64,000 nt of DNA from contig JAPPQH010000010.1 of NCBI GenBank assembly GCA_028817035.1, positions 11,546 to 75,545 of the forward strand. The letters run 5' to 3'. This stretch comes from Candidatus Campbellbacteria bacterium (lineage in GTDB: Bacteria > Patescibacteriota > Minisyncoccia > Phycocordibacterales > JABAAK01). This document shows positions 1 through 47,888 of this stretch, piece by piece. A program made the translations under genes and the position numbers. Numbering within the stretch: position 1 is the first letter of the stretch; each line of letters begins with the position of its first letter. The notes below the pieces were generated by a model. The model ran no database searches, had not been told where the DNA came from, and saw only the letters and a list, made by a program, of their open reading frames with translations.

Positions 1-6
1 ATTGGA

Positions 7-351
7 ATGTTGTTTGGTCTTGTGAAGAACGAATGGACAAACGCAATAGCTAATGCTCAAAGTATTGATGTAACAGCATGGTGGTTTTTGTTTAAAGCAA
101 TTGGAAATTTGAGCTTCTTACTTGTTCCTACGGGAATAATATTTGCGTCAATTGTGTTGCTTGGTAACAAAAGCAAATTAGCAAAAGTTGCTGGTGTTTT
201 GGGGCTTACATTTGTCTTTCCTTTAGGATTTGGAATGTATATGCAATCTCTATTCCTATTTATTTTGCTTTGGGGACTGCTTTGGACACTCGTAGTTACA
301 GCGTTATTGTGGGTATGGGCAATAAACCCTAGCAAAATTGAAGAGCAATAG
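7..351 (+). CDS. hypothetical integral membrane protein (possibly 5'-truncated at window edge)
   Basis: ORF track; 114 aa with several hydrophobic helices; no recognisable motif. Confidence 0.35.
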   Translation: MLFGLVKNEWTNAIANAQSIDVTAWWFLFKAIGNLSFLLVPTGIIFASIVLLGNKSKLAKVAGVLGLTFVFPLGFGMYMQSLFLFILLWGLLWTLVVTALLWVWAINPSKIEEQ

Positions 352-367
352 AGTTAATCACTCCCTC

Positions 368-1048
368 CTACTCATCAAACAAGTCCTCCATGTTTTCTTT
401 CATTGAGTAGTAATGGTCTTTGGTGACGATTATGTGGTCCACAAATTCTACGCCGAGGATACTCCCTGCCTCTACCAATCTCTTAGTTACATTTATATCT
501 GCATCAGACGGCTCGCTATCATTAGAAGGATGATTGTGTGCTCCCAATATACTTGCCGCATTGTTTTTAACTGCGTATGAAAACACCTCTCTTGGATGAA
601 CCAAACTTGCGTTAACCGTTCCTATACTCACTATCTCTCTTGATATTTCTTTATTTCTTGAATCAAGAAAAAATATTATAAAATGCTCTTTCTGACTCAC
701 CCTGATATCAGCCAACTTCTCCCAAATCTCCTTTGGATCAACTGAAGTTATTGGATACCTGCCGCCCTTTAATCTTGCAGCCAACTCAACACAGGAAAGT
801 ATCTGGCTTATCTTCGCATCACCAAGCCCATTTATCTTTTCCAAATCAGCCCTCTCAATCTTATAATTCTTTTTGCTAAGAAGTCGCCATATCTCGCTTG
901 AGAGCCTTTTAACATCCTTGCCCCTTATTCCACTACCAAGCAATATCTGCATCAATTGGGCATCAGAAAGTTGCTCTGCCCCTTTTTCTTTGAGTATCTC
1001 TCTTGGTCTATCTTCAGTTTCTAATTCACTAAATTTTTTTATCGCCAT
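368..1048 (-). CDS. radC: RadC-family JAB/MPN domain protein
   Basis: 226 aa; C-terminal JAMM motif HNHPSNDSEPSDADINVTKRL and N-terminal helix-hairpin-helix-like GLGDAKISQIL typical of RadC/UPF0758. Confidence 0.85.
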   Translation of the reverse strand: MAIKKFSELETEDRPREILKEKGAEQLSDAQLMQILLGSGIRGKDVKRLSSEIWRLLSKKNYKIERADLEKINGLGDAKISQILSCVELAARLKGGRYPITSVDPKEIWEKLADIRVSQKEHFIIFFLDSRNKEISREIVSIGTVNASLVHPREVFSYAVKNNAASILGAHNHPSNDSEPSDADINVTKRLVEAGSILGVEFVDHIIVTKDHYYSMKENMEDLFDE

Positions 1049-1122
1049 ACAAAAACTATTGGTCTATGATGCCATACTCAGCCCATTGTTGCAATATGAT
1101 TTTATTGCCTTCTATTATTAAT

Positions 1123-1716
1123 TCACCACCTACCCCAAGCGCGATAGACAGTCCAAAGAAGAGCAAGGACGGATACTGTCAGTTGAATGGTTGTAATTGT
1201 GTTGTAAAAGATTAACTCTTTAATTCCTCCAAACTCTGGAGAAATTGAATACATTAGGTGTAGGTAAGTGAAAAGCGAAAGAACTGAAACTATTTTATAA
1301 AACCAAACCCTGGCATTTTCTCTTTTCGTTGTAGCAAAAAGAAATGCAAGTATAAAAAACAAATATGGTAATAAAACAATAAACCAAAACACTATCGGCG
1401 AATTACCAGAACTTAAATGTAAATCATATTCTACTCCAAAATAATTCTCTCCAAAAAAAATAACAGATACCCAAGCCAGTAAGAAAATTGCCAACAAAAC
1501 TTTTATTAATTTATTTGTCTTTTCTGGGGAAGAAAATCTATAAATCAAAACAAACAATGAACCAACTAAAAGCGGTAGTGTTAGAGATTGGAGTAACAAA
1601 GTCGGTGCATAAAACATGACAGATATGAGAACCAGCAAAGGAATAGCCGCCAATACATCTATCACATTTTTAACAACTCTTGAATTCATATATATATTAT
1701 ACACACAACCACTCAT
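1123..1716 (-). CDS. hypothetical polytopic membrane protein
   Basis: 197 aa, 5-6 hydrophobic segments, no conserved motif recognised. Confidence 0.45.
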   Translation of the reverse strand: MSGCVYNIYMNSRVVKNVIDVLAAIPLLVLISVMFYAPTLLLQSLTLPLLVGSLFVLIYRFSSPEKTNKLIKVLLAIFLLAWVSVIFFGENYFGVEYDLHLSSGNSPIVFWFIVLLPYLFFILAFLFATTKRENARVWFYKIVSVLSLFTYLHLMYSISPEFGGIKELIFYNTITTIQLTVSVLALLWTVYRAWGRW

Positions 1717-1953
1717 CCCCTGTCAAGCACGCAAAACCTGCTTGACATTAAGCCAGTAATTTATGCTTTTATTCTCTAACAAGTACTTATATAGGTGACA
1801 ATCAGAAAAGTTTAAAGGCAAAGATAGTTTATATAAACTATCCGAAAAAACTTTTTTGTTTTAGGAAGATGAGGAGGAGAAAGGTTTTTTCTTGGATAAT
1901 GACTAGAATCAATATTGAATATTGAGTTCGCGCTTCGCGCTCACACTATTTTC

Positions 1954-2838
1954 ACCTTATCTCCCCTTATTATCGGGGGCGACAGAAGTTCTAACCGCCT
2001 TATCTCCCCTTATTATCGGGGAGATAATACAACCACCGCGCCTTATCTCCCCTTATTATCGGGGTAGTTGTAATCTCACTGGGCCTTATCTCCCCTTATT
2101 ATCGGGGGGCCACAAACCAGCACGGGCCTTATCTCCCCTTATTATCGGGGCTCCTTTCTGACTTTGTCGCCTTATCTCCCCTTATTATCGGGGGGATGCA
2201 TTCTGCCCCTCGCCTTATCTCCCCTTATTATCGGGGTCGCTCGCATTCTATAATGCCTTATCTCCCCTTATTATCGGGGAAGCGTCAACACCCCCAGGCC
2301 TTATCTCCCCTTATTATCGGGGCGCAAAAGATAAAGACATGCCTTATCTCCCCTTATTATCGGGGATTTTACGCTTACAACAAGCCTTATCTCCCCTTAT
2401 TATCGGGGGGTTATAAAAGGCATCTCGCCTTATCTCCCCTTATTATCGGGGAGTGTCATATCATGACTAGCCTTATCTCCCCTTATTATCGGGGTGAGAT
2501 AATCCCACGGATGCCTTATCTCCCCTTATTATCGGGGAGTTAGTCCTTCGTTTTCGCCTTATCTCCCCTTATTATCGGGGTATATTCTCTCAGAATCGGC
2601 CTTATCTCCCCTTATTATCGGGGCAGGATTATATCGACCTCGCCTTATCTCCCCTTATTATCGGGGAAATACGATTACCGACATGCCTTATCTCCCCTTA
2701 TTATCGGGGACATCTTCAAAAGAACACGCCTTATCTCCCCTTATTATCGGGGTGCTCTTTTTGTATTCATGCCTTATCTCCCCTTATTATCGGGGTTTTC
2801 AATTTTTAAGGTTGCCTTATCTCCCCTTATTATCGGGG
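1954..2838. CRISPR. CRISPR array: 21 repeats of GCCTTATCTCCCCTTATTATCGGGG (25 nt) with 20 spacers of 18 nt, period 43 nt
   Basis: Repeat copies start at 1955+43k (k=0..20) by direct reading. Repeat contains internal palindrome CCCC-N8-GGGG. The base preceding the repeat is a instead of g at the 1955-side copy and at the 2384 copy. Short repeat and 17-19 nt spacers are characteristic of Cas12d/CasY arrays. Confidence 0.95.
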
Positions 2839-2951
2839 AGTTTATCCGATTTCCCCATATAAATACTTGTTAAAGAACAAAATTAACAAACAAAAGTCAT
2901 ATCAAAACACCAATGTTTATTAACTACTATTTAATTATAGCATACTTTTAT
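2839..2951 (-). promoter_or_regulatory. putative CRISPR leader / array promoter (AT-rich, TATAAT on minus strand)
   Basis: 113-nt AT-rich spacer between cas1 stop and first cas-proximal repeat; minus strand reads ...gtatgcTATAATtaaatag. Degenerate terminal repeat lies at the opposite (1955) end. Confidence 0.35.
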
Positions 2952-3995
2952 TTACTTGTCTCTATCGGTGTTGATAACCCAATCCTTTGAAACTCTTTCT
3001 GCTTCAATGTTAAAGTCGGTAGGTCCAGCAGAGCGACCATACAACTTATACCCAACTTTTTTAGGACGACCTCCAAGTGGCCTTCCGGGGATCGGAACAA
3101 TAAACTTTTTGGCATCGCCCAATAAATACGCCCTCAGTGCCAATATGTTACCATGCAAAAGTTCTTGAAAAGTAACTATCTGCCTTGTTTGATGTGTATA
3201 AACTTTTTTATCAAGTAAGTCTTCTACGCCCTTAGTCGCAAATGCAACCAAATTTTTGTTATCCCTGTTAGTTTTATGTACTCCTTTTATTGTTTCAAAA
3301 ATATTTTTTTCAATATAACCTCTGTAGGGTTCCATAAGATCATATACAAGTGATGGATAGTCAGTTGGTATATGCATAAATCCGTGGTATGGACTCATTT
3401 TGTGATAGGTTATATATCTCAAAATCACACCGCTGATTAACTTGGACACTGCGTTTAACACAGAGCTTATAACATTTTTTCTATTTCTTCTTTCTGATTC
3501 TTTGTTTCCCAATTTTGCATAATACTTCTTCCAATACCTCACCGCATGAAGTGCTTCTATAGATCTTAAGTCCTTTACACTTTTTGCAAATTTTATCTTA
3601 TGTATTGTGTGTTTATTGTTGGGCAGAAGCCACTCCATTGATTTCACTTTTGCTAACAATAATTTCCTTGCTATATGTAAAGATTTTATTTTATTTTCTC
3701 TGAAAATAATTTGTTTAGTCAGTATGTCATCTATATTCGTTGTTGTGGTACCAGTAATCCATATAGCCTTTGACATATGCCTTCTATGTATGCAAATTGG
3801 TATGTTATATCTAATGCATAACTGTAAAAACTCTTCATCCAAAGGACATACAGCACCATAAAATAAAATTGAGGAAATTCTACTCCATGGAATATCAAGC
3901 ACTCCGCCCTTGAATTTAAAAGTAGCCTTGTCTTTTTGCCAAGAAATATCGCTAGTATATGGCAACCAAATTGGTATTTTACTTTTTCCTGGCAT
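2952..3995 (-). CDS. cas1: CRISPR-associated endonuclease Cas1
   Basis: 347 aa; conserved Cas1 catalytic region SPYHGFMH...LVYDLMEPYR; directly flanks CRISPR array; 17-nt overlap with upstream effector gene. Confidence 0.9.
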   Translation of the reverse strand: MPGKSKIPIWLPYTSDISWQKDKATFKFKGGVLDIPWSRISSILFYGAVCPLDEEFLQLCIRYNIPICIHRRHMSKAIWITGTTTTNIDDILTKQIIFRENKIKSLHIARKLLLAKVKSMEWLLPNNKHTIHKIKFAKSVKDLRSIEALHAVRYWKKYYAKLGNKESERRNRKNVISSVLNAVSKLISGVILRYITYHKMSPYHGFMHIPTDYPSLVYDLMEPYRGYIEKNIFETIKGVHKTNRDNKNLVAFATKGVEDLLDKKVYTHQTRQIVTFQELLHGNILALRAYLLGDAKKFIVPIPGRPLGGRPKKVGYKLYGRSAGPTDFNIEAERVSKDWVINTDRDK

Positions 3996-6900
3996 TTTTA
4001 CTTATAATATCATTAAAGGATTTTCTTGGCATGTTTAACTTTACTGGTTTGAAACCCATATCTTTGTATTTGTTCATTTCATCTTGGAAATTGGCTTTTG
4101 TATTTTTCTTATCTTTCTTAAACCAAGCCCTTAAACCTATAATCAAAGATGCTTGTATATCTGCATCTGATATATGTCCACAGCCCTTAAATGGGCAAAC
4201 AAAAATTCCAGAGTTTCCTGCTGTCTCGTAAAACTTTTTCCGTTCCTTGTTATCATATTTCTTGAAGAAAGCGTCTTTTATAACTGGATGGTCTTTAAAA
4301 GACTCGCTGTTTAATTTAACATTCTTTTCATTTTCTACATCAAAGATTGGAGGTCTTGCAAAATCTTGTATAGATTTTATTAGTTCTTTTGTTTTCATAG
4401 CACCCTTCTTTTTATCTCCCTCCAAAAAGCCATACACTTCTTGCCCATTATCTATAGTTGCTTTTATATATTTACTATTATTGATTCTTTCCCACTCCCA
4501 AGAAACTTCTTCTGTTTCCTTCTTTTTGCTTGCTTTCTTTTTAGACTTTTCATTTTGCATATCTCTTATAGTGTACAAACTTCTCCAACATTCTGTACAT
4601 ACATAACTTGTCCCGTAAGCACTTTTATGAACACCAATAAAGTTACTAGTGCCCCATACATGCTCTCTTGTCATTTTTTCTGACGGATTATTTTCTGTTG
4701 CAACATCCGCAGTTTTTACTGTTTTATATAAAGCAGTCAATCGAGAGCTACCCGTCTCAAAGTTACTTATTGAAAGCTCATAACTTGGTATCGCATTATA
4801 CCGAACAGCCACATCATGTATACGGTTTTTTAATGAACTACTTATTGATTTTCTGATTTCTGCAAGTTTTGTATTAGAGGATGTAAAGGTCGCTGCTTTT
4901 TGTTTTTCTTTGTTCTCTTTGAATCGCTCTCTGACTTTCCTTATTCCTTTTTCATAATCAAACCAAGAAAATAAAAGTTTTTTATTTTTAATATCTATTA
5001 AAGAAAAGGCGAGACCATATTCACCAACATCTATGCCAAGATACCTATTCCTTTCTTCAAGCTCTGCCTTTATTTCTTTTTGTCCCAAATTCTTTTTTAC
5101 CTTTAACTCAAATGGAATAGAGATAAAGATTTTGGAACTACCCCTCACTTTATTAAAAACTGGCTGATCTTTTGACCAGTCAATTTGATAATCTTCTTCT
5201 CCTATAAATGAATAATCAGAAATTTTTACATCAAAATCCTTATTAATAGAATTGCCAAAAAATGGAGAAGATTCGTTCAAAAATTGAGTTTGGTATTTTG
5301 AACTTTGGATCTTAAAACCACAATTAATATTTTCAACTGGTATAAAGTTCTTCTTCTTTGATGGGTCCTTTGTCTTATCTGATAATTGTAAAAAGTCTGT
5401 TTCTGTTTTTGTTTTAGATAAGTTTTCCTTTTTGGCTATATACCAAAGATTATCTTTTTTATCAAAAACCAGAGGAAAATCAGCACCAGAACCCATGGGC
5501 TGAACAACATATCTTTCTTTAAATATTTTTTTGCTTAATATATTTAGCGTTCCCTTCATTTCTGCAAAGAAATATCTTTGCAAAATTGTATTAATTTTAT
5601 CTCCATCCAATGTCTTACCCTCTTGTAATTTTAGATATTCCCCAGCTTCTTCAAAACGTTTAGTTTTAGAGAAATTTTTTAGAAAATCACTTTTACTGAC
5701 ACTTATCTTTTTATAGTAAGTAATTAATCCTATTCTAATCTTTTCAAGTTCAATAGCATCAATATGTTCTCTTATATTTTCTAATTTTCTTTTCTTAAAA
5801 TCAGGTCTCAGTAAATCAATTAATTTTGGTATTGAATCAAAAATTTCTTCTATATTTTTACCTAATTCTAACTCTTTCCAATTTCCTCTTCTCTTATACT
5901 TTGTAAAAACTTCTTTCTCCTTAAGTCCTTTAATATCAATGCCTGTTGTTGTTGTGATTGCCTTTTGAATTATATTCTGTGCCCAAGGGGTTGAATCTTT
6001 GTATAGATTGTTTAAAGTATCAAATCTTCTTAACAATGTAATTTTTTCATTCTCAACATCTTCATCTTCAATTTTCCTTAATTCTAAATCATTATCTAAC
6101 ATCTTTCTTAATCGTTCAATTATATCCAAACCATCTTTGTACATTTCTTTTGAATTCAATATTTTTGTCAAGTGCTCTTTTTTTCTTATACCAGGAAAAG
6201 TTGGAAATTTTGGCAATGTCGCAAAAACTGATTTATATTTATTTCTCTCTTTCTTCAATTCTTTTTCTTCCATCTCTGGATTTTGTGCTTGTATAAATTT
6301 ATTTAATTCAACACGAAGATCGCCTAAAATTCTTGAGTATATATCAAATGATTTCGCCAATAAATTAGTTTTTATTGATTTATTTAGATTTATCAACTCA
6401 TTTGTTAAATTTTTTAATCTATCAATATTTTTATTATTTTTTTCTTTGATAATATCAAGCAAAGTTTTTAAATGCTCTTCATGTCCAGGAACCCCTACAT
6501 CTTTGCCATCCTTATCTTTTTTGGTATATCCAAACAAAACATGGTCTATGTCTTCTTTTTGATTTTCTGTATTACTTATCCAAGAACTTAATTTACCGCC
6601 CATCGTTGTTCTATATTCTGCCCAACTTTTTGCCATATATGGTGTTTCGGGTAATAATTTTGCACGGGACGATAACCATTTTAATCTTTTTTCTAATTCT
6701 TTTTCTTTACCCTTCCATAAATCAGAGTTAATATTTAATATCATTTCTTTTGCTTTATCTATATCACCTTCACGAACCGGTTTAAGGAATTTATTAAAGG
6801 CATAACTTAGTGGGTTATGATTGGTTGCCATAGCCAAAAAAGAGATTGGGTTTTCGCCATACTTTTTCCTTACTCTGTCTATTAAATCCTGTTCTTTAAC

Positions 6901-7650
6901 ATCTTCTTTGGCAAACTCAAAATCTGGGTGTATAAACAACGCACCTTCATTATTACCTTTTTCTATAAAACTAACTCCAAAATTTTTTGACCAAAATTCT
7001 TTTTGTTTATCTGCTTTTATAGTCTCGCCATCCGACTTACAAATCCCTTTGTATATCTGTTCTGTGTATTTCCTAACCTCTTTTCTATTTTTTATATATA
7101 TACTGTGCTTAAAAATACCTGTTTTACCCTTTAATTTTTCTTCATTTTTATCTTTTGATAAAATTCCTTCAATTCTATCTTGATTACCATAAAATATATT
7201 TTTTATTTCTTCTTCTCCAGATTTCTTTCTTACACCGCCAGAGAGCCTTATTTTATTATTAAAAGAATCAAAATCTATTAAATCAAAGAATTTTAGATCT
7301 TTCTTCTTCATATCCTTCTTGACCTCATTATTAGCACTGTCATCTATAAAACTCTTTATTTTAAATACATTGTCATGAAACACACTTCCAACTCTTAGAA
7401 AATCAAGATATAAATCAAATAATGAATATTCTCCTCTGCCATCTTTCAATGTTGTTGCATTAAACTGACCAACTTGACCTTCATAATCACATCTTATCTG
7501 ATTCATAAGATTTTCTGTTTCTGATTCATCCTTAAATACAATTGGAAATTTTATTGTTCTGATTGCCTTACCACCAGTATATTTTAACCTTCTTAGATGA
7601 AGTTTATAACCTGTCATTCCCTTGTATTTTCTTGATCGTTTTGCTTTCAT
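3979..7650 (-). CDS. cas12d: type V-D CRISPR effector Cas12d (CasY)-like nuclease
   Basis: 1223 aa. RuvC-I LGIDVGEYGLAFSLID (D874, codon at 5029-5031), RuvC-II ...IPSYELSISNFE (E958), zinc ribbon CTECW (C1018/C1021) ... CPFKGC (C1152/C1157), RuvC-III SDADIQASLIIG (D1162/D1164). N-terminus GYKLHLRRLKYTGGKAIRTIKFP and motif WAEYRTTMGGKLSSW resemble published CasY N-terminal/helical motifs as recalled. Operonic with cas1 and short-spacer array. Confidence 0.85.
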   Translation of the reverse strand: MKAKRSRKYKGMTGYKLHLRRLKYTGGKAIRTIKFPIVFKDESETENLMNQIRCDYEGQVGQFNATTLKDGRGEYSLFDLYLDFLRVGSVFHDNVFKIKSFIDDSANNEVKKDMKKKDLKFFDLIDFDSFNNKIRLSGGVRKKSGEEEIKNIFYGNQDRIEGILSKDKNEEKLKGKTGIFKHSIYIKNRKEVRKYTEQIYKGICKSDGETIKADKQKEFWSKNFGVSFIEKGNNEGALFIHPDFEFAKEDVKEQDLIDRVRKKYGENPISFLAMATNHNPLSYAFNKFLKPVREGDIDKAKEMILNINSDLWKGKEKELEKRLKWLSSRAKLLPETPYMAKSWAEYRTTMGGKLSSWISNTENQKEDIDHVLFGYTKKDKDGKDVGVPGHEEHLKTLLDIIKEKNNKNIDRLKNLTNELINLNKSIKTNLLAKSFDIYSRILGDLRVELNKFIQAQNPEMEEKELKKERNKYKSVFATLPKFPTFPGIRKKEHLTKILNSKEMYKDGLDIIERLRKMLDNDLELRKIEDEDVENEKITLLRRFDTLNNLYKDSTPWAQNIIQKAITTTTGIDIKGLKEKEVFTKYKRRGNWKELELGKNIEEIFDSIPKLIDLLRPDFKKRKLENIREHIDAIELEKIRIGLITYYKKISVSKSDFLKNFSKTKRFEEAGEYLKLQEGKTLDGDKINTILQRYFFAEMKGTLNILSKKIFKERYVVQPMGSGADFPLVFDKKDNLWYIAKKENLSKTKTETDFLQLSDKTKDPSKKKNFIPVENINCGFKIQSSKYQTQFLNESSPFFGNSINKDFDVKISDYSFIGEEDYQIDWSKDQPVFNKVRGSSKIFISIPFELKVKKNLGQKEIKAELEERNRYLGIDVGEYGLAFSLIDIKNKKLLFSWFDYEKGIRKVRERFKENKEKQKAATFTSSNTKLAEIRKSISSSLKNRIHDVAVRYNAIPSYELSISNFETGSSRLTALYKTVKTADVATENNPSEKMTREHVWGTSNFIGVHKSAYGTSYVCTECWRSLYTIRDMQNEKSKKKASKKKETEEVSWEWERINNSKYIKATIDNGQEVYGFLEGDKKKGAMKTKELIKSIQDFARPPIFDVENEKNVKLNSESFKDHPVIKDAFFKKYDNKERKKFYETAGNSGIFVCPFKGCGHISDADIQASLIIGLRAWFKKDKKNTKANFQDEMNKYKDMGFKPVKLNMPRKSFNDIISKNARKK

Positions 7651-7698
7651 ATCAGTTTATTTTAGCACAAAGACTTTTATTTTGGAATAAAGCGATAT

Positions 7699-7735
7699 AA
7701 AAAAAAAGCCCCGAGGCTCGAAGAGCACTCGGGGC
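7699..7735 (-). terminator. Rho-independent terminator for gene 7761..8234
   Basis: GC hairpin gccccgag-N12-ctcggggc (7708-7735) followed on minus strand by T9 (A-run 7699-7707 on plus). Confidence 0.7.
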
Positions 7736-7760
7736 GTAATTCGGTTAGAGGAGAAACGGT

Positions 7761-8234
7761 TTATTCACCATCCTGTGTTGAGTCAGCATCCTGCATCAAC
7801 TTCATAAACTCGTCTCGCGCAACCTCGTTTTGTTCCTGGTTGCGTTCACTATAACCTTCGTTTGCAGCATCTCGCAAATCACTCTCTGCAGGACCGATTT
7901 CAGGTGTTGGAGCTTTGTCATACTCTCGGACTTGCTCCTCAAGCAGAGGATTTGCGGGCTGTATCACCGTTTTGGGTCGATACCCCATTTCTACCTGTGA
8001 GTAGATAATGGCTGCCGCAAAAAACACCATCCAGAGACCGATGCACCACTTGTTTGACCAAAGTACATCGCCGACTGGAGACGCTCTTTCGCTTCCGTCA
8101 ACCATTTTGGGGTCTGCTTGCTCCACTTGGTTCGCCATCCTGCGCCAAATAGCAACTGCCGAAACAATCACTACAAGCCACAGAACAACTTTGATAAGAG
8201 CAAACCCAAAGACTGAGATGGCAGTGATATCCAT
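7761..8234 (-). CDS. hypothetical membrane protein (2 TM, acidic C-terminus), co-operonic with SPFH protein
   Basis: 157 aa; higher-GC than genome background; 13-nt gap to upstream SPFH gene. Confidence 0.5.
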   Translation of the reverse strand: MDITAISVFGFALIKVVLWLVVIVSAVAIWRRMANQVEQADPKMVDGSERASPVGDVLWSNKWCIGLWMVFFAAAIIYSQVEMGYRPKTVIQPANPLLEEQVREYDKAPTPEIGPAESDLRDAANEGYSERNQEQNEVARDEFMKLMQDADSTQDGE

Positions 8235-8246
8235 AACATACCTCCT

Positions 8247-9200
8247 TTACTTTTCTTGGTTCGATTCTGCCATGGCGTTGTTGAGTGTGCCCATAAGGAC
8301 TGCGGGATTCTTAAATCCCTCGAAGGGCATTACAAAGACACGACCATCTGGATTTTTGGCGAGTGTCTCCATAATCTTCAACCAACGCTGAGTGACAAAT
8401 GGTTCACTCACACTGTCAGCAAGTACGCGATTGACAAGCGCTTGAGTTTCTGCCTCCTTGAGGTCAACCTCCTGTTGTTTTTTAGCAACTTCAAGGGCAG
8501 CATCTGCCTGTTTCAAAGCTATCTGCTTTTCAGCTTCAGCTTTTTGAATCCCGATTTCGCGTTCTTTTCTGTTTTCCTGAGCAGTGACAACGATTTGGGG
8601 TGGCTGAATATCAGCCAAACCAAACCTTATGGTCGTGATAGGAGTCGATTTCAAACGCTCACGAATATCCTTCACAAGCATAGCAGAAATTTCGCTTCGG
8701 TTTTCCATCACCTGTGCGATACTGTGCTCGGCAAGGATTGAGCGGACTGCTTCACGAACGACCGGCTGTCCATAGGTGTTGTAGACCTTTGCCATTGAAA
8801 TCAGTCGGACACGATTGCTTGGTTGTTGGTCGGCAGTCACACGACTAAAGACCTTTTCAACATTTTCTTTGTCAGAGCTGATTGCAAACACGCCACGCAC
8901 ATCCACATTGAGGTTCAGTTGGTCCTTTGGCATAAAGATTACCATCTGTTCCAAAACCGCATGGTCTGATGCCTCAACGAGGATGAGAGAGTCACAGTTC
9001 CAACAAAAACCTTCCAGCCTAAACTTTGAAGGCTGTATGATCTTTTCTTGAAGACCAGACTCAGTCGAGAGTTTGCCGACATGGGCAGGTGGCACTTCAA
9101 CTCTCTCGCCACACCCCCCCATGGCAAACATGCCCAGCAAAATTGCCATCATTGCAATAGTTTTTTTCACGAGTTTTCCTCCTCTGTGTAAAAGGTTCAA
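8247..9200 (-). CDS. SPFH/band-7 (stomatin/prohibitin-like) lipoprotein
   Basis: 317 aa; signal peptide with lipobox-like AMGGC; band-7 core and long Ala/Glu/Lys coiled-coil (EREIGIQKAEAEKQIALKQADAALEVAKKQQEVDLKEAE); GC-rich. Confidence 0.7.
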   Translation of the reverse strand: MNLLHRGGKLVKKTIAMMAILLGMFAMGGCGERVEVPPAHVGKLSTESGLQEKIIQPSKFRLEGFCWNCDSLILVEASDHAVLEQMVIFMPKDQLNLNVDVRGVFAISSDKENVEKVFSRVTADQQPSNRVRLISMAKVYNTYGQPVVREAVRSILAEHSIAQVMENRSEISAMLVKDIRERLKSTPITTIRFGLADIQPPQIVVTAQENRKEREIGIQKAEAEKQIALKQADAALEVAKKQQEVDLKEAETQALVNRVLADSVSEPFVTQRWLKIMETLAKNPDGRVFVMPFEGFKNPAVLMGTLNNAMAESNQEK

Positions 9201-10485: not shown

Positions 10486-10557
10486 TGACCCTACGGGGAA
10501 TCGAACCCCGATTTTCGCCGTGAAAGGGCGATGTCCTGGCCGTTAGACGATAGGGCC
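10486..10557 (-). tRNA. tRNA-Glu (anticodon UUC)
   Basis: Reverse complement folds as GGCCCTA/TAGGGTC acceptor, anticodon stem TCGCC/GGCGA with loop CTTTCAC, T-arm CGGGG-TTCGATT-CCCCG; CCA not encoded. Confidence 0.8.
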
Positions 10558-10612
10558 AATGATAAGATTATACTCTAAAATTATAAACCCTTCCCAGTTA
10601 TGGGAAGGGTTG

Positions 10613-10685
10613 TGACCCAGCGGGGATTTGAACCCCGATTTTCGCCTTGAAAGGGCGATGTCCTCACCGGTTAGACGACAGGGTC
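10613..10685 (-). tRNA. tRNA-Glu (anticodon UUC), second copy with divergent acceptor stem
   Basis: Anticodon arm TCGCC-CTTTCAA-GGCGA; T-arm CGGGG-TTCAAAT-CCCCG; acceptor GACCCTG/CTGGGTC has one T-T mismatch in the canonical register (alternative register GTGACCC/GGGTCAC is perfect but gives non-canonical junctions). Confidence 0.6.
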
Positions 10686-10740
10686 ACGGTTGAAATTGTA
10701 AACCCCTCCCATTTGCGGGAGGGGCTGTATGCAAGGTGAA

Positions 10741-10902
10741 TCACTTCCTGCGGAGTTCCTTGTTGCGTTCCAAACCAAAAGCGACCTCTGGCGGTAGCGG
10801 TAAATCAGAAGGAAGTCCGCATTGATCACAAAAATCCACCGTGGGTTCGTTTTCCTTCAAGCATGTGGAACACTTCCAACCTTCTGCGCCTGCAAGACAC
10901 AT
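10741..10902 (-). CDS. small zinc-ribbon protein (53 aa), unannotated in ORF track
   Basis: Translates MCLAGAEGWKCSTCLKENEPTVDFCDQCGLPSDLPLPPEVAFGLERNKELRRK with CxxC...CxxC; GGAGG 8 nt upstream of ATG; followed by hairpin cccctccc-N6-gggagggg (10702-10728). Confidence 0.35.
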   Translation of the reverse strand: MCLAGAEGWKCSTCLKENEPTVDFCDQCGLPSDLPLPPEVAFGLERNKELRRK

Positions 10903-11052
10903 ATCAGTACCTCCGTTGATTTTTGCAAAAGAACTTTGGGGTTTAACCCATTTTTATATGCTATCATATCTCCCAAAATATGTCAAGTATAAGAAAAGCC
11001 GATAATCAAGCCCATTACCTTAACCTAAATCTTTTAGTATAATTACCATGTT

Positions 11053-11126
11053 GGGCGATTAGCTCAGTTGGCTAGAGCGCTCCCTTGACGTGGGAGAGGT
11101 CACAGGTTCGAATCCTGTATCGCCCA
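11053..11126 (+). tRNA. tRNA-Val (anticodon GAC)
   Basis: GGGCGAT/ATCGCCC acceptor, D-arm GCTC-AGTTGGCTA-GAGC, anticodon arm CTCCC-TTGACGT-GGGAG, T-arm ACAGG-TTCGAAT-CCTGT. Confidence 0.85.
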
Positions 11127-11174
11127 CATTCTCATATTTACATTTACACTTAATTATCATATTATATTATTTAT

Positions 11175-11792
11175 ATGAATAAACAAAAAATTCTATTGGT
11201 TTTAGTTGCTTTGGTTGTCGGAGTTGTGGGCGGTTTTGGCGGTGCTTATATGTTTGAATCTTTGGGTGATAAAAACCAAAACAAATTGATAAAAGATTAT
11301 TACTTGGTTGAGAATGCTGTTGGTGTGAGTCCGCATGGCTTGAGATTGAGGATGGATAAGGGTGATCAGACATTTATACTTGTTGATTTAAGAAGTCAGG
11401 AGGAATATGAAAGAGAGCACATCACGGGTGCGATAAATATCCCTGCATATAGTGATAAGTTTACAAGTGCGTATCATGAGGTGGAGAGGATTGTTGGTTC
11501 TTTTAGGGAGTTGCCAGAAGACAAGGAGATAATAACATATTGCTATAGTGTTCCGTGTATGACGAGTCGCAGAATTGGAAAGCTACTTGTTGAAAATGAT
11601 ATTTATGTTAAGCATCTTAATATAGGTTGGAATGAGTGGAGATATTTTTGGAATTTATGGAATGTTGAGCATGAACTTGCAGATACAAGTCCAGAGCAAT
11701 ATGTAACAGAGGGTCCCGAGCCAGGTGTCCTTGAAAATGCAAATCCTTTCCTTATTGACACAGGATGCACGGCAGGTGAATTTGGGTGTTAA
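11175..11792 (+). CDS. rhodanese-domain sulfurtransferase (membrane-anchored)
   Basis: 205 aa; N-terminal TM; rhodanese fold FILVDLRSQEEYEREHITGAINIP with active-site Cys loop ITYCYSVPCMTS. Confidence 0.75.
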   Translation: MNKQKILLVLVALVVGVVGGFGGAYMFESLGDKNQNKLIKDYYLVENAVGVSPHGLRLRMDKGDQTFILVDLRSQEEYEREHITGAINIPAYSDKFTSAYHEVERIVGSFRELPEDKEIITYCYSVPCMTSRRIGKLLVENDIYVKHLNIGWNEWRYFWNLWNVEHELADTSPEQYVTEGPEPGVLENANPFLIDTGCTAGEFGC

Positions 11793-11798
11793 GGTTTT

Positions 11799-12971
11799 AT
11801 GAGGTTGTTCGCTATTGAGACAAGTTGCGATGAAACTGCTGTTTGTTTTTTGGATGCGGTAGAGAAAGATGGTGGCGATCACAAGATAGAGGTTCTGTCT
11901 CATATATTAATCTCACAGGCAGAGAAACACGCTGAATATGGTGGCGTGTTCCCTACTCTTGCGAAACGCGAGCATGCTAAAAATCTTGTTCCCATCACTT
12001 TGAAAGCGCTTGAAGAGGTGGGTGTAGAAAAGGTTGGCGACAGGGTTATGGATAAAAATGATGAGGAGAAAATTGGAAAAATTCTTGAACGGGAGGAGGA
12101 GTTAAAGGAAAGTTTTATTGAGGAAATTGCGAAGTGTGGGGTGCCTGATGTGGATGCTATCGCTGTTTGTGTCGGTCCTGGTTTAGAGCCAACCCTTTGG
12201 GTGGGTATCAATTTTGCAGAGGCGCTTTCTGTTTTGTGGGATAAGCCGATAATACCTGTGAATCATATGGAGGGACACATTGTGTCTTCATTTTTTGATA
12301 ACAATACTTTGAAAAAATTTCCTATGCCGTTGCTTTCGCTTTTAATTTCTGGAGGACATACAGAGCTTGTCCTTTCAGAGAAACAAAATGATTATAGAAA
12401 AATTGGTTCCACGAGAGATGATGCTGTTGGTGAGAGTTTTGACAAGGTGGCGAGGCTTCTTGGTCTTTCTTATCCAGGGGGTCCTGAGGTGGCAAGGTTG
12501 GCAAGTCTATCACGCACAAGGGCTAAAAAGATTGATGTGAGATTTCCACGCCCAATGATAAAAGATGATGGTTTTGATTTCTCTTTCTCTGGTCTTAAAA
12601 CAGCGGTCAGGTATTTTGTTGAGGGAAAAAATTTAACTGATGCGGAGAAAGAAGATGTTGCTTGTGAGTTTGAGGATGCAGTCACAGAGGTCCTTGTGAC
12701 AAAGACAAAAATGGCTATTTTGAAACACCGACCGAGTGCGCTTGCCGTTGGCGGTGGCGTGGCTGCAAACAAGAATATAAAGGAGGCTATGACAAAGATG
12801 GTGGCGGAGCTTGATTTCCCTGTTTCGCTCCACATACCAAAACCAAAAGATGCGACTGACAACGCGATAATGATTGGTCTGTCGGGTTATCTCAACTCAA
12901 TGCAGAAAGATTATGGAATGGCTGTGTATGAGATAAGGGCTGACAGTTCCCTCTCATATCTAAAAAACTGA
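11799..12971 (+). CDS. tsaD: tRNA N6-adenosine threonylcarbamoyltransferase TsaD (Kae1/Gcp family)
   Basis: 390 aa; N-terminal IETSCDETAV and metal-binding region, 6-nt gap after rhodanese gene. Confidence 0.9.
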   Translation: MRLFAIETSCDETAVCFLDAVEKDGGDHKIEVLSHILISQAEKHAEYGGVFPTLAKREHAKNLVPITLKALEEVGVEKVGDRVMDKNDEEKIGKILEREEELKESFIEEIAKCGVPDVDAIAVCVGPGLEPTLWVGINFAEALSVLWDKPIIPVNHMEGHIVSSFFDNNTLKKFPMPLLSLLISGGHTELVLSEKQNDYRKIGSTRDDAVGESFDKVARLLGLSYPGGPEVARLASLSRTRAKKIDVRFPRPMIKDDGFDFSFSGLKTAVRYFVEGKNLTDAEKEDVACEFEDAVTEVLVTKTKMAILKHRPSALAVGGGVAANKNIKEAMTKMVAELDFPVSLHIPKPKDATDNAIMIGLSGYLNSMQKDYGMAVYEIRADSSLSYLKN

Positions 12972-13017
12972 GATTTACAAATTAGGAAAAACTAAATAAA
13001 TTGTATATTATATAGAT

Positions 13018-15216
13018 ATGGACGAGAAATTTTTGTCACCTTACGACCCTAAAAAATACGAGGGCGAGATTTATAAAAAATGGGAAAATAGCGGTTATTT
13101 TAACCCTGACAAGTGTGTAGCAGATGGTATCACAAGCCCTGATGCAGAGCCTTTTTGTATAGTTCTTCCCCCTCCAAATGTAACAGGTGTTTTGCATACC
13201 GGTCATGCTATGGTTGTTGCGGTTGAGGATCTTTTGATTCGCTACAACAGGATGAAGGGAAAAAGGACTCTGTGGATTCCAGGGACAGACCACGCTGCCA
13301 TCGCGACACAGGCGAAGGTGGAGAAGATTTTATACAAAGAGGAGAAAAAAACAAAGGAGGATTTGGGTAGAGAGAAATTTTTAGAATTGGTTAAAAAATT
13401 TGCAAAAGATAATTACAACACAATAGTTAGCCAGATAAGAAGGTCTGCTGCATCTCTTGATTGGAGTCGCGAGGCATACACACTTGATGAAAAGAGAGAG
13501 AAAGCAGTTTATACCGCTTTCAAAAGAATGTATGATGCAGGAATTATTTATCGTGGTAATCGCATAGTTAATTGGGATCCAAAATTGAAGACTTCTGTTT
13601 CTAATGATGAGATTGAATACAAGCAGGAGGTCTCCCCTTTTTATTATTTGAAATATGGACCGTTTGTTATTGGAACTTCAAGACCAGAAACAAAGTTTGG
13701 TGATAAATATGTGGTTGTTCATCCAGATGACAAAAGATACACGGAATACAAGCATGGACAAAAGATAAGTGTGGATTGGATAAATGGAAAGGTTGAGGCG
13801 ACAGTAATAAAAGATGAGTCAATTGATATGGAACTTGGAACAGGTGCGATGACTATAACCCCATGGCATGATGAAACTGACTATGAGATAGCAGAGAGGC
13901 ACAATCTTGATAAAGAACAGATTATTGATTTTAGGGGCGTCCTGCTCCCTATCGCCGGCGAGTTTGAGGGGATGCATATTAAAAAAGCAAGGGATAAGAT
14001 AGTAGAGAAATTCAAATCTCTTGGTCTGCTTGAAAAGATTGACGAAAAATACGAGCATAACATAGCGACAAATTCAAGGGGTGGTGGGATAATTGAGCCA
14101 CAGATAAAAGAGCAATGGTTTCTGGGGCTTGAAAGAGAGTTTGTCCTTGAGAAGTCAAATATAAAAGGGGTTAAATCGGGAGATAAAACAACGCTCAAAA
14201 AAATATTGTTGTGTGCTGTTGAAAATGGTCAGATAGAGATTTTGCCTGAGAGATATTCAAAAGTTTATTTTAATTGGATAAATAATATAAAAGATTGGTG
14301 CATCAGCAGACAGATATGGTTTGGGCATCGCATACCTGTATGGTATAAAGGTGATGATATACATTGTGACGCTGTTGCGCCTAAGGGTGATGGATGGGAA
14401 CAGGATTCTGACACATTGGACACATGGTTTTCTTCTGGGCTGTGGACTTTCTCAACACTTGGATGGCCAGACACAAAAGAAAAAGATTTTCAGGTGTATC
14501 ACCCTACCTCAACCCTTACGACTGGTTATGATATTTTAATTTTTTGGATTGTTAGGATGATACTTATGAGTGGTTTTTGTGTTGGCGATATTCCCTTTAA
14601 GACCGTATATCTGAATGGTCTTGTGAGAGATGAAAAAGGAAGGAAGATGAGTAAGTCGCTTGGCAACGCCATCAACCCTATTGATGTGATAGAGAAATAT
14701 GGAAATGATGCTCTTCGTTTTTCTATTCTTGTAAGCTCTACCCCAGGAAATGATCTGAATTTTTCAGATGACAGAGTGAAGTCGGCAAAACATTTTGCTA
14801 ACAAGATATGGAATATAACAAGGTTTATTCTTTCAAATATGCCTTCAAATTATGATTTTGAAAAAGATGTGGAATTTACAGACAAAGATTTGGTGCTGCA
14901 TAAAGAACTTCAAGTCCATATAAAACATGTTACTGACAATATTGATTCTTACTCATTTCACCTTGCGGCTGAGAAGTTGTATGCTTATGTCTGGCACAAT
15001 TTGGCGGATGTCATAATTGAAGAAAGCAAGGAGGTGTTGAACGGGCAGGACGAAGCCGCAAAGCAATCACGGGCAAGGGTGCTTTATGAAATCCTTACCA
15101 CAAACCTTAAAATGCTCCACCCGTTTATGCCGTCTATAACTGAGGAAATATGGTCTTCCCTGCCTCATAAAAATATGGACTTGCTTATGGTTGAAAAATG
15201 GCCCAAGTTGTCATAA
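13018..15216 (+). CDS. valS: valine--tRNA ligase (compact form)
   Basis: 732 aa class I aaRS; PPPNVTGVLHTGHA (HIGH) typical of ValRS and KMSKS (RKMSKSLGN); shorter than typical ValRS (no C-terminal coiled coil). Confidence 0.75.
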   Translation: MDEKFLSPYDPKKYEGEIYKKWENSGYFNPDKCVADGITSPDAEPFCIVLPPPNVTGVLHTGHAMVVAVEDLLIRYNRMKGKRTLWIPGTDHAAIATQAKVEKILYKEEKKTKEDLGREKFLELVKKFAKDNYNTIVSQIRRSAASLDWSREAYTLDEKREKAVYTAFKRMYDAGIIYRGNRIVNWDPKLKTSVSNDEIEYKQEVSPFYYLKYGPFVIGTSRPETKFGDKYVVVHPDDKRYTEYKHGQKISVDWINGKVEATVIKDESIDMELGTGAMTITPWHDETDYEIAERHNLDKEQIIDFRGVLLPIAGEFEGMHIKKARDKIVEKFKSLGLLEKIDEKYEHNIATNSRGGGIIEPQIKEQWFLGLEREFVLEKSNIKGVKSGDKTTLKKILLCAVENGQIEILPERYSKVYFNWINNIKDWCISRQIWFGHRIPVWYKGDDIHCDAVAPKGDGWEQDSDTLDTWFSSGLWTFSTLGWPDTKEKDFQVYHPTSTLTTGYDILIFWIVRMILMSGFCVGDIPFKTVYLNGLVRDEKGRKMSKSLGNAINPIDVIEKYGNDALRFSILVSSTPGNDLNFSDDRVKSAKHFANKIWNITRFILSNMPSNYDFEKDVEFTDKDLVLHKELQVHIKHVTDNIDSYSFHLAAEKLYAYVWHNLADVIIEESKEVLNGQDEAAKQSRARVLYEILTTNLKMLHPFMPSITEEIWSSLPHKNMDLLMVEKWPKLS

Positions 15217-15259
15217 ATTGTGATACAATTTTTAATAAGTAAGATTTTTTAAAATAAAT

Positions 15260-15742
15260 ATGAAAAATAAAAAAAGCAAAAAGAAAAAAGGGTTCAGTTT
15301 TTTTGAGTTGTTGACTGGGACAAACGAAGACGAACTGGAAGAGGAACTAAGTGATGAAGAAGAAGTAGAAGGGGGTGAAACAAGCAGGGCTTTACCTCAA
15401 AATGAAGATGAGGAGCGACACTTGCCGGTTGATTTGATAAACACGCCAGACGACATAATAATCAGAGCAAATCTTGCAGGGATTAACCCCGACAATATAG
15501 ATCTTTCAGTATCAAGAGAGGTTATTATAATTACCGCGAAAAATGCAAGAAAGCATGAAGAACAAGAATGTGATTATTTTTATCAAGAATTATATTGGGG
15601 AACTTTATCAAGGACTATTGTTCTGCCACAGGAAATAGAGGTAGAAGATGTTACTGCAGATACAAAGAATGGGATGCTTACCATTGTGCTTCCAAAAATA
15701 GATAAAGATAAAAAGACAAAGGTTAGGGTTTCTAAGAGATAA
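15260..15742 (+). CDS. Hsp20/alpha-crystallin family small heat-shock protein
   Basis: 160 aa; acidic N-terminus then alpha-crystallin domain LPVDLINTPDDIIIRANLAGINPDNIDLSV...GMLTIVLPK. Confidence 0.85.
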   Translation: MKNKKSKKKKGFSFFELLTGTNEDELEEELSDEEEVEGGETSRALPQNEDEERHLPVDLINTPDDIIIRANLAGINPDNIDLSVSREVIIITAKNARKHEEQECDYFYQELYWGTLSRTIVLPQEIEVEDVTADTKNGMLTIVLPKIDKDKKTKVRVSKR

Positions 15743-15751
15743 AAATAAAAA

Positions 15752-15794
15752 GGCATCGCCTCCAAAACCACTTGTGGTTTTTTCAGCGATGCCC
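15752..15794 (+). terminator. nested-hairpin terminator after hsp20
   Basis: ggcatcgc...gcgatgcc outer stem enclosing aaaacca-cttg-tggtttt followed by T-run. Confidence 0.55.
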
Positions 15795-15808
15795 GCCCTT
15801 GCGTGCGG

Positions 15809-16054
15809 CTATCCGCTTATGGGATTCTCCTGCAAGAGTTGTTCGCAGTAGGCTGCGACCTGAGGGTCCCTCTTTCGCATCTCCTGCCTATCGTCGGAAG
15901 ACAGTGCTCTATATGTGCGAAGCAACTCCGTGTCCTTCTGGGGTCTTATCAACCACAAAAGAAATGTCTCCATGCTAACTGAACGGTCGTACTCTATGGG
16001 CTCTACAGCCACACTAGAATCCATCCCTTCTGGGATGTGCTCTACAGTTTTCAT
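15809..16054 (-). CDS. small hypothetical protein in GC-rich patch (start moved to RBS-supported ATG)
   Basis: ORF track 15809..16099; internal Met (MKTVEH...) preceded by AAGGAGG at 7 nt and a TTGACA -35 element upstream; GC content well above background. Confidence 0.4.
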   Translation of the reverse strand: MKTVEHIPEGMDSSVAVEPIEYDRSVSMETFLLWLIRPQKDTELLRTYRALSSDDRQEMRKRDPQVAAYCEQLLQENPISG

Positions 16055-16448
16055 ACCTTTTTCCTCCTTTTGAAGAATGAAAAGTTCAGTGATGGACAAA
16101 CTGCCATCTTCTATAATGTTACTACAAACTCTTTAATTTGTCAAGTAGTTCCAAAAATGAAAAGATCCAAGCGGAATGCTTGGCTCTTTGGTTCAACTGC
16201 AGGACGAGAAAATGCAGACCGCAGCATCAGCGATATAAACGGTTGTTATCAAAGCGATGACGGTAATCAAGGACTTGTCAAAATCGTCAAAACCTGAGTC
16301 TTCTGAGGTATGTTTTTCATTCATACCATTTACCCTCCTGTTTTGAAAAGATTATTCGGCAACGAGTTGCCTTCTATTATTAAGTATAGGGTATATAAAT
16401 GTTGGTGTCAAATGAAAAGAGCCAAGCAAATGGAATAGATTGGAATGT

Positions 16449-16611
16449 GTAAGTCTGACCGCAACGAGCCTGCGAGTTGCGTCAAGCGTTCAAATAGTGA
16501 AGTAATGGGTTGGAGGGCGTGAAACTTGACCTTTGCGAGCTTGCGAGCAAAATCAAGCGAGTGGCGAAGCCACGAGCGATAATAAATAAGGTGTGCCGAG
16601 AGTGGGTCTCG
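16449..16611. repeat. diverged tandem copy of the tRNA-Phe 3'-flank, ending in a 19-nt duplicate of the tRNA-Phe 3' end (gtgccgagagtgggtctcg, 16593-16611)
   Basis: taagtctgaccgcaacgagcctgcgagttgcgtcaagcg at 16449-16487 and 16704-16742; gtgccgagagtgggtctcg at 16593-16611 and 16787-16805 (the latter inside tRNA-Phe). Confidence 0.6.
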
Positions 16612-16786
16612 GCGTCAAGTTTCTAAACTCGCTATCGCTCGTTAAGAACTTCCTGCCCAAATTTGCGATATAGCAAAAGTGATAGATTGGGAGAGAATAA
16701 GTCTGACCGCAACGAGCCTGCGAGTTGCGTCAAGCGAACAGCGGAGCTGTTCGCGTTAATAAATAGAAGCGAGTGAAACGAGCGAG

Positions 16787-16859
16787 TGCCGAGAGTGGGT
16801 CTCGAACCCACGACCCCTTGTTCTTCAGACAAGTGCTCTACCAACTGAGCTATCTCGGC
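16787..16859 (-). tRNA. tRNA-Phe (anticodon GAA)
   Basis: Reverse complement: GCCGAGA/TCTCGGC acceptor, D-arm GCTC-AGTTGGTA-GAGC, anticodon arm CTTGT-CTGAAGA-ACAAG, T-arm GTGGG-TTCGAGA-CCCAC, discriminator A. Confidence 0.85.
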
Positions 16860-16868
16860 GGATTTTGG

Positions 16869-17183
16869 TTAGTTCTCTTTATTTTCAGGTGGAACGACAA
16901 GATTGTCAATCACTTCAACAACGGCTTTATATCTTTCTGTTTCATCTTCTATTTTTTCTTCAACACTTTCAACTTTCTGTTCAAATGCCCTGAACACATC
17001 TATTGCTGGGACAACAAAATTTATAGTTCCGTAGTAACCAAAAGCAATCACGATTATAATAAACAAAAAACGAATTATGCTCCCTATCGCAGTGGATCTC
17101 CTGAGAGCACGCAACAATCTATAGTTCTCACGAGATAACTTTATGTTTTGTTTCAATAGTTTTTCTATTTCTTCGTTGTTCAT
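16869..17183 (-). CDS. hypothetical small membrane protein with coiled-coil
   Basis: 104 aa, one central TM segment, no motif. Confidence 0.4.
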   Translation of the reverse strand: MNNEEIEKLLKQNIKLSRENYRLLRALRRSTAIGSIIRFLFIIIVIAFGYYGTINFVVPAIDVFRAFEQKVESVEEKIEDETERYKAVVEVIDNLVVPPENKEN

Positions 17184-17209
17184 TTTAATCTTGTTTATTC
17201 CGAACTCCC

Positions 17210-47878: not shown

Positions 47879-47888
47879 TGGGTCAACC

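Follow-up and report, generated by a model that had tools for sequence, protein, structure and literature searches.

How does a Cas12d locus supply the second RNA on which its nuclease depends, and how might that RNA be brought together with the guide? In the Cas12d family a scoutRNA and the CRISPR RNA (crRNA) jointly activate the nuclease via a short pairing between a dock in the scoutRNA and an anchor in the repeat. The question is raised here by a Cas12d locus on a stretch of 64,000 nucleotides (nt) from Candidatus Campbellbacteria bacterium (contig JAPPQH010000010.1; hereafter the window), in which a gap separates the CRISPR array from the gene of a small membrane protein. With the help of folding, covariance models and comparison with other Cas12d loci we find that this gap very probably holds the scoutRNA gene of a type V-D (Cas12d) system, followed by a segment complementary to the CRISPR leader (the anti-leader or trailer arm). 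More tentatively, and with slightly less than even confidence, we propose that type V-D scoutRNA is coupled to the precursor crRNA (pre-crRNA) by a conserved leader:trailer helix, which would act as a built-in, leader-specific "anti-repeat", defining the ends of the scoutRNA and the first crRNA, for example via a double-strand RNase, and/or causing Cas12d to be loaded by preference with the newest spacer.

The gap between the last repeat (1955) and the open reading frame (ORF) at 1123-1716 had been described as non-coding in the initial annotation, and no credible ORF was found in it, none exceeding 32 amino acids (aa) and all of the short ORFs starting with TTG. Because the neighbouring gene starts at the ATG at 1689, as in the NCBI annotation of its 188-aa protein, and not at 1716, the non-coding stretch extends over about 265 nt (1690-1954). 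On the plus strand AAGGC occurs at 1815-1819; the minus strand from 1827 to 1810 reads cuaucuuuGCCUUuaaac, with GCCUU at 1819-1815. The initial annotation had pointed to a minus-strand GCCUU complementing the AAGGC at the end of the repeat, and this motif is present, but the coordinates assigned to it (1805-1822) were about 5 nt off. We share the caution, expressed at the same time, that a GCCUU 5-mer alone is weak evidence; it is the whole motif that is strong (covariance model E-value of 2e-4).

The GCCUU belongs to a predicted scoutRNA core on the minus strand (1803-1857), which was delimited by folding and by a covariance-model match at 1805-1855 and begins on the crRNA strand, 97 nt past the last repeat. 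From 1857 to 1803 it reads AAAAGUUU / UUUC / GGAUAGUUU-AUAU-AAACUAUCU / UUGCCUUU / AAACUUUU. In the predicted fold (-11.9 kcal/mol, z = -3.0) a closing stem formed by 1855-1848 and 1813-1806 encloses a UUUC linker (1847-1844), an inner hairpin (1843-1822) and a single-stranded dock of 8 nt (1821-1814), within which the GCCUU is located and for which the mean unpaired probability is 0.94. The AAGGC of the repeat forms a single-stranded 3' tail beside the spacer, after a repeat hairpin of 4 base pairs (bp). No consensus promoter was found directly upstream of the scout, either by promoter scan or by inspection by eye.

To identify scoutRNA-like elements we used a covariance model (R1) trained on the KbCas12d RNA and 10 Cas12d loci, the window sequence being excluded. 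Over both strands of the 64 kb its sole match was 1805-1855 on the minus strand (31.2 bits, E = 2e-4; runner-up 17.3 bits), and with filters off over positions 1-9000 the scout was returned at E = 2.8e-5, with no other match below 0.09. These searches bear on the possibility that the GCCUU in the gap is a chance match and that cas1, the leader gap or the region upstream of cas12d contains the real scout. A given 5-mer is expected about once per 1-2 kb per strand, and in L001, the locus with the closest Cas12d relative, a scout-like motif does lie antisense in the 3' end of cas1. R1, however, gives that motif no score, and in the window it finds only the element in the gap: neither of the two other intergenic regions that the initial annotation had proposed for inspection (2839-2951 and 7651-7760) scores, nor does cas1, the former region being the conserved leader and the latter a terminator together with the -10 element of cas12d. 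No other scout-like element was detected in the locus, and a scout elsewhere is considered extremely unlikely. Rfam searches, at a permissive threshold for positions 1-9000 and at the gathering score for the whole window, returned no scout or tracr family and only chance-level matches, Rfam being without a scoutRNA family. A permissive Rfam match at 7701-7756 was rejected as the terminator of an upstream gene.

A further alternative is that the stem-loop at 1857-1803 merely terminates or trails the array transcript, without working as a scoutRNA. It is true that in several loci a U-rich tract (CUUUUC, CUUUUUG, GUUUUG) continues the closing stem's 3' arm; the stem is nevertheless AU-rich and weak, the terminator scan lists none at this position, and the clear terminators of this genome are GC hairpins followed by T runs. 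Such a structure would also leave the invariant single-stranded GCCUU and the match to an active scoutRNA unexplained, and we regard this alternative as very unlikely. We conclude that the minus strand at 1857-1803 is the putative scoutRNA gene of the locus, and infer its expression and activity.

Other Cas12d loci were obtained via protein homologues, and in all of those that include an array (14/14) an element of the same plan lies beside the array on the crRNA strand. When R1 was run on the 278 kb of DNA retrieved, it gave 10 matches at E < 0.05, and each adjoins a Cas12d array (10/10). The same minimum-energy architecture was predicted independently for the window, the Kb RNA and 10 loci, the exceptions being the duplicate in L004, which folds differently, and the short Kb construct, in which the closing stem is shifted. 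From one locus to the next the closing stems and inner hairpins show no sequence relationship, and the closing-stem arms pair with their own partners at a mean of -7.4 kcal/mol versus -3.1 kcal/mol with those of other loci (permutation p <= 5e-5); this own-arm preference therefore indicates compensatory variation. The duplex permutation replaced a model-fitted alignment (A3), in which the closing stem was only 71% paired because the dock and the 3' arm are separated by a linker that varies from 0 to 2 nt among loci. The GCCUU is invariant in 15/15 loci and in the Kb RNA (L004, L015 and L016 were checked by eye), and its predicted unpaired probability is 0.73-0.94 among the 13 sequences folded, save for the short Kb construct (0.47). 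The enclosed segment starts with UUUCC or UUUCG in all but three (UUCC in L013 and AUUCC in the L009 group), and minimal scouts of 34-35 nt, lacking the inner hairpin, occur in L007 (4703-4737) and L013 (6881-6915).

Loss of the complementarity in orthologous loci had been named in the initial annotation as grounds for rejecting the scout. Among the loci checked the 5 bp are kept except in L013, in which the repeat ends in CAGGC (4 bp); the repeat of L010 ends in AGGGC, so that one of its five pairs is G.U. The GCCUU is kept in both loci; something besides pairing, perhaps contact with the protein, therefore constrains the dock sequence. Covariation with the repeat, of the kind that a second pseudoknot like that in Cas12c2 would show, was not detected for the UUUCC/UUUCG segment, and L003 and L010 have near-identical repeats yet differ in this base. 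The scout lies at the trailer end of the array in 12/15 loci and before the array in L009, L015 and L016; in L008 it starts immediately after the last repeat, which implies co-transcription. A Cas12d scoutRNA in the gap, as first suspected from the complementarity, is thus supported by the shared architecture, the independent model, and conservation and covariation in 14 loci.

Several points weigh against this assignment. The window has UUUCG at a position where UUUCC prevails among the loci, and only AU pairs make up its closing stem, which is weak (-6 kcal/mol). The model is crude, since R1 misses the scouts of L004, L009, L015 and L016, which were found by eye or by regular expression, and 10/11 of its training sequences are our own predictions. 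The sample comprises 15 loci only, several of them related, and both the scout and the read-through transcript are predictions made from sequence. A genome scan for Cas12d loci gave 2 loci only; a metagenome scan with the Cas12d alignment gave no matches, and one with the repeat pattern had a single return (L014), an unrelated tRNA-linked repeat.

Two of the loci show unusual arrangements of scout-like sequence. The scout of L004 (5985-6081) contains an internal duplication, with UCCUU in place of GCCUU in copy 1 and an intact motif in copy 2, and an outer closing stem encloses both hairpin-dock copies. The L001 motif (10561-10599, minus strand) is composed of UUUCC, a hairpin and UUUGCCUU with CCAAA/UUUGG flanks; the L001 contig stops 58 nt beyond cas1, and the array is thus missing. 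In the window itself the minus strand between the array and the scout contains a polypyrimidine tract (CCUUUCUCCUCCUCAUCUUCC, 1862-1891), and the scout's 5' closing arm could face competition from an inverted repeat made up of A and U only (1844-1855 / 1880-1891). A plus-strand ORF of 19 codons near 1844-1891 is without a usable ribosome-binding site.

With respect to known systems, the element resembles Cas12d scoutRNA in being array-adjacent and on the crRNA strand, with an inner hairpin enclosed by a closing stem and with an unpaired GCCUU complementary to the AAGGC repeat end. The shortest active KbCas12d RNA, scoutRNA1, has 44 nt (aaaggguuuccaguuuuuaacuaaacuuuagccuuccacccuuu), and the tail of scoutRNA3 reads CCUGAUUUUGUUGAUAAU (supplement of bioRxiv 10.1101/2023.12.12.571249). 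A YCUGAUU tail is common to KbCas12d scoutRNA1 and the window scout, whereas the closing stems and hairpins are wholly unlike in sequence and the UUUCC of Kb is UUUCG in the window. The KbCas12d scout is located upstream of the array (bioRxiv 10.1101/2023.12.12.571249), in contrast to the window scout, which follows it. In the Cas12c2 RNA a dock of 3-5 nt pairs with the 3' anchor of the repeat in a pseudoknot (PMC9522604), and, given the closing stem, the predicted dock:anchor pairing of the window is also a pseudoknot by topology; no counterpart of the additional repeat contacts of the Cas12c2 RNA (PK1, stem 4) could be demonstrated in the window. Cas12c is a distant protein (36 bits for Cas12c; PDB match 7v93 at E = 2e-7), and a structure database search returned no deposited Cas12d structure. 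Like a trans-activating CRISPR RNA (tracrRNA; type II and V-B/E/F), the predicted scout would act in trans from a gene beside the array, pair with crRNA and be required by the effector. Unlike a tracrRNA, which forms a long anti-repeat duplex with every repeat (an anti-repeat of at least 10 nt), it would pair over 5 bp with the repeats, the long complementarity being to the leader, over 40-50 bp and once per transcript.

This long complementarity constitutes the largest feature of the gap and was overlooked in the initial annotation. The 40-55 nt that lie 3' of the scout (1807-1752) reproduce, as its reverse complement, the leader at 2897-2844. Using RNAduplex and an inverted-repeat search, the leader arm was placed at 2844-2897 on the minus strand (ungapped core 2854-2882), with 5 nt left between its end and repeat 1. 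The trailer arm was placed at 1752-1807 on the same strand; it starts 7 nt past the GCCUU and overlaps the final two bases of the closing stem's 3' arm. RNAduplex gives -48 kcal/mol for the two arms, and the core (1767-1795 / 2854-2882) is the only long inverted repeat in the region. When the whole putative transcript of 1186 nt was folded the helix was retained in both the minimum-energy and the centroid folds. Leader, repeat 1 and spacer 1 cofolded with scout and arm give -74.4 kcal/mol versus -37.4 kcal/mol apart, and the anchor pairs with the dock, so that the co-folding with the repeat suggested in the initial annotation does produce the dock:anchor pairing.

The leader:trailer pairing is present in 12/12 loci in which the scout lies after the array. 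For a first group of 7 loci (the window, L002, L004, L005, L006, L007 and L013) local alignment of the reverse-complemented leader with the trailer gave z = 5-15, and own-locus duplexes reach -34 to -49 kcal/mol versus a cross-locus mean of -16 kcal/mol. Throughout this group 5 nt separate the end of the leader arm from repeat 1 (0 in L013, 3 in L006), and the trailer arm starts 3-7 nt past the GCCUU, at the end of the closing stem, in 6/7 loci (19 nt in L006). In an unfitted MAFFT alignment (leader+repeat / dock+trailer) 79.8% of the cells of a 36-pair helix are paired versus 65.4% after shuffling, and double changes occur in 21 pairs versus 11.3+-2.1 after shuffling; 0/500 shuffles reach either value, and slid controls remain at 38-60%. 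In L003, L008, L010, L011 and L012 the pairing of the 30 nt past the scout with the leader of the same locus surpasses that of 998-1000 out of 1000 shuffles, with the helix starting 5-7 nt past the GCCUU and the leader arm lying 49-126 nt from repeat 1. In the loci with the scout upstream of the array (L009, L015, L016) the homologous arms are adjacent and form a local hairpin right after the scout, and the same pairing is therefore kept in two topologies; the remaining leader of these loci aligns with L003 and L010. Across loci the predicted helix comprises 13-46 bp over about 0.5-2.3 kb where the scout follows the array and is a local hairpin where the scout precedes it.

The complementarity might instead be a feature of the DNA with no RNA helix, arising by inverted duplication of the leader-repeat junction, from paired protein sites (integrase or host factor) or through gene conversion, and the arms would indeed also stay complementary under processes acting on the DNA, gene conversion between inverted repeats being one example. 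The leader-proximal segment is conserved between loci, as an integration signal would be, and the scout occupies the place of an antisense "first repeat" beside the inverted leader copy; antisense-repeat origins have been proposed for tracrRNAs. In the per-locus alignments, arm mismatches on the sense strand are 32 of the G.U type versus 4 of the A.C type, with G.U ahead in 7/7 loci, and the sense duplex is stabler than the antisense duplex in 12/12 loci. The fixed-column alignment, whose register does not fully fit L007 and L013, shows a smaller G.U excess (35 versus 14 cells), and the column-level bias is not significant (18 versus 10 columns, p = 0.18), a result that speaks against an RNA helix, as does the potential of gene conversion. 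The geometry is unlike that of a fixed DNA site, in that the trailer arm lies at a fixed distance from the scout (except in L006) while the leader arm lies 5-126 nt from repeat 1. The arms are, moreover, adjacent as a hairpin in L009, L015 and L016, and the anti-leader arm was not found to be a dispersed repeat. Taken together we consider an origin or function at the DNA level unlikely, though a serious rival.

The following scheme can be suggested. The scout would be made as the 3' part of the pre-crRNA transcript from the leader promoter, its dock would pair with the repeat anchor of each crRNA, and Cas12d would bind the pair to become an active nuclease, as known for the family. If the arms do pair in RNA, the 40-55 nt after the scout would bind the leader segment located 5 nt ahead of repeat 1. 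The resulting long-range helix would close the array and the scout and bring the 3' terminus of the scout up to the 5' terminus of repeat 1. Such a junction would be the connection used in engineered Cas12d single guide RNA, in which the scout 3' end is joined to the crRNA 5' end. The most likely role of the helix would then be to assemble or process the scout with the leader-proximal crRNA, with options including a substrate for a double-strand RNase that releases the ends, a tether favouring the newest spacer, and protection of the transcript. Against an obligatory RNase III step, the scoutRNA is said to free Cas12c and Cas12d from RNase III.

Bacterial precursor rRNA offers a parallel, its leader-trailer (processing-stalk) helices being formed by flanks that pair around the unit and being classic RNase III substrates. 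As in these stalks, the flanking sequences of the predicted transcript would enclose a unit, here differing in that the unit is a CRISPR array with a scoutRNA. In the CRISPR-Cas9 system of Streptococcus pyogenes the leader RNA reportedly prioritises the first spacer, and the structure proposed here would likewise influence leader-proximal crRNA biogenesis; the S. pyogenes leader, however, pairs with the first repeat, whereas the window leader would pair with the flank of the helper RNA. A 2024 review lists Cas12d RNA maturation as unknown, and no description of a leader:trailer pairing was found in the searchable literature, a scope outside of which Harrington et al. 2020 lies. In L006, L007 and L013 there is overlap between the trailer arm and the start codon of the cas gene that follows (cas1 in L007 and L013, cas12d in L006), so that the helix could also mask this start.

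Read on the minus strand, the anti-leader arm is directly followed by a perfect 9-bp inverted repeat with a 9-nt loop (1721-1747), which had been reported exactly: its arms are TGTCAAGCA (1721-1729) and TGCTTGACA (1739-1747). One arm coincides with part of a promoter of the neighbouring gene on the minus strand (1696-1726), composed of TTGACA (1726-1721), 19 nt, TATAAT (1701-1696), 6 nt and the ATG at 1689. Perfect TTGACA-N15-19-TATAAT sites number 5 in the window versus 0.09 expected, the other four being upstream of genes, and at 1726-1696 both sigma-70 hexamers are present upstream of a gene start with a spacing within 16-19 nt. The TTGACA-N19-TATAAT is the predicted promoter of the neighbouring gene, with the palindrome arm as its -35, and the position of the ATG at 1689, 6 nt past the -10, suggests that the mRNA of this gene is leaderless. 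The ATG at 1716 is an unlikely start because it lies inside the promoter spacer. A homology search with the neighbouring membrane protein returned only itself.

Of the roles that had been considered for the palindrome, that of a plus-strand array promoter finds no support, as the array reads on the minus strand from the opposite, cas1-proximal leader promoter. A candidate plus-strand promoter starting from the palindrome TTGACA was rejected, its -10 matching the consensus at only 4/6 positions. The sequence also lacks the form of an intrinsic terminator, in which a U tract immediately succeeds a GC-rich hairpin, as no such tract follows on either strand: the palindrome is followed by GGGGAUG on the minus and UUAAGCC on the plus strand and is absent from the terminator scan list. 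The roles of operator or 3'-end hairpin are possible but unsupported. A perfect 9-bp inverted repeat with a loop of 3-20 nt arose in 160/5000 shuffles of the gap and is thus unusual but not strongly beyond chance. That the palindrome is more than a chance repeat, either as the operator of a dimeric regulator of the neighbouring gene or as a hairpin that ends or stabilises the CRISPR-scout transcript, would fit with its perfection (equalled in only 3.2% of the gap shuffles), its overlap with a perfect -35, its start 4 nt past the anti-leader arm and its presence as a hairpin in the minimum-energy fold of the gap. It nevertheless has no U tract on either strand and occurs once in the window, in which about 15 comparable inverted repeats are found in 64 kb, and the neighbouring protein is without homologues. 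We therefore see a function as possible, with the balance tilted somewhat against it; as part of the scheme above, the CRISPR-scout transcript may have the palindrome as a cap at its 3' end.

On the minus strand the locus is ordered as cas12d (7650-3979), cas1 (3995-2952), a gap of 113 nt, the array (2838-1955), the gap under study and the small membrane-protein ORF. The cas12d gene (3979-7650, minus strand) encodes 1223 aa, which match the Cas12d/CasY equivalog NF033951 of NCBIfam over the full length (1054 bits, cut-off 250) and are identical to an NCBI protein named Cas12d from a Candidatus Campbellbacteria metagenome-assembled genome. The cas1 gene (2952-3995, minus strand) was assigned with TIGR00287 (77.4 bits, above the cut-off). 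The array (1955-2838, minus strand) consists of 21 repeats of CCCCGAUAAUAAGGGGAGAUAAGGC; repeats of 25 nt and spacers of about 18 nt fall within the 25-26 nt and 17-19 nt of a V-D array, and the minus-strand repeat CCCCGAUAAUAAGGGGAGAUAAGGC has the same form as the KbCas12d crRNA repeat CUCCGAAAGUAUCGGGGAUAAAGGC. In the last repeat (ending at 1955) the terminal U replaces C, as expected for the old end of an array.

The CRISPR leader (2839-2951, minus strand) was defined by its full-length alignment with the leaders of 6 other Cas12d loci. A promoter scan placed the leader promoter at 2934-2962 on the minus strand (GAGACA, 17 nt, TG-extended TATAAT), and its TG-extended -10 ATGCTATAAT (ATGnTAT motif) is invariant in 7 loci and about 105 nt from repeat 1 in each. 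Because the leader and its promoter are conserved there, the array is read on the minus strand from its cas1-proximal end, an orientation fixed by the conservation of the leader and also by the KbCas12d crRNA. The gap at 7651-7760 contains the canonical terminator of the upstream gene (GCCCCGAG...CUCGGGGC, then a U run) and a TG-extended -10 TGCTAAAAT placed 8 nt ahead of the cas12d ATG (7650), a distance that suggests a leaderless or near-leaderless cas12d mRNA. The start of the neighbouring membrane gene (TATAAT, 6 nt, ATG 1689) resembles that of cas12d.

Elsewhere in the window, a gene of the RadC family (368-1048, minus strand) adjoins the membrane-protein ORF, five tRNA genes are located in 10486-17283, and a bacterial RNase P RNA (136 bits) was identified at 25316-25653 on the minus strand. 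Three tandem cassettes occupy 45900-48820 on the minus strand, each with a perfect TTGACA-N18-TATAAT promoter (46814-46785, 47787-47758 and 48819-48790), a near-identical leader of about 100 nt (AAAAGCAAUGUGGGGACGAAAGUCCUCGCG...) and an ORF of 230-283 aa with no Pfam match; GC-hairpin terminators lie at 45902-45935, 46871-46904 and 47844-47879. The best Rfam match of the cassette leader is the ylbH leader at 20.6 bits, well below the threshold, and the leader may be an undescribed cis-regulatory leader.

For Cas12d systems the scoutRNA described here would be an ordinary new member of a known family, and the leader-complementary arm is the part that deserves follow-up. With Cas12d, Cas1, leader promoter, array and a predicted scoutRNA of 55 nt, the parts list of the locus would be complete, and direct reconstitution of the Campbellbacteria Cas12d would be possible. 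The comparison also provides a compact definition of the V-D scoutRNA as a closing stem, UUUCC/G, an optional hairpin and UUU-GCCUU, with a minimal size of 34-35 nt. If true at the RNA level, the leader:trailer helix would provide a concrete route for the maturation and joining of scout and crRNA in Cas12d systems and a new way for CRISPR leader RNA to take part in guide biogenesis.

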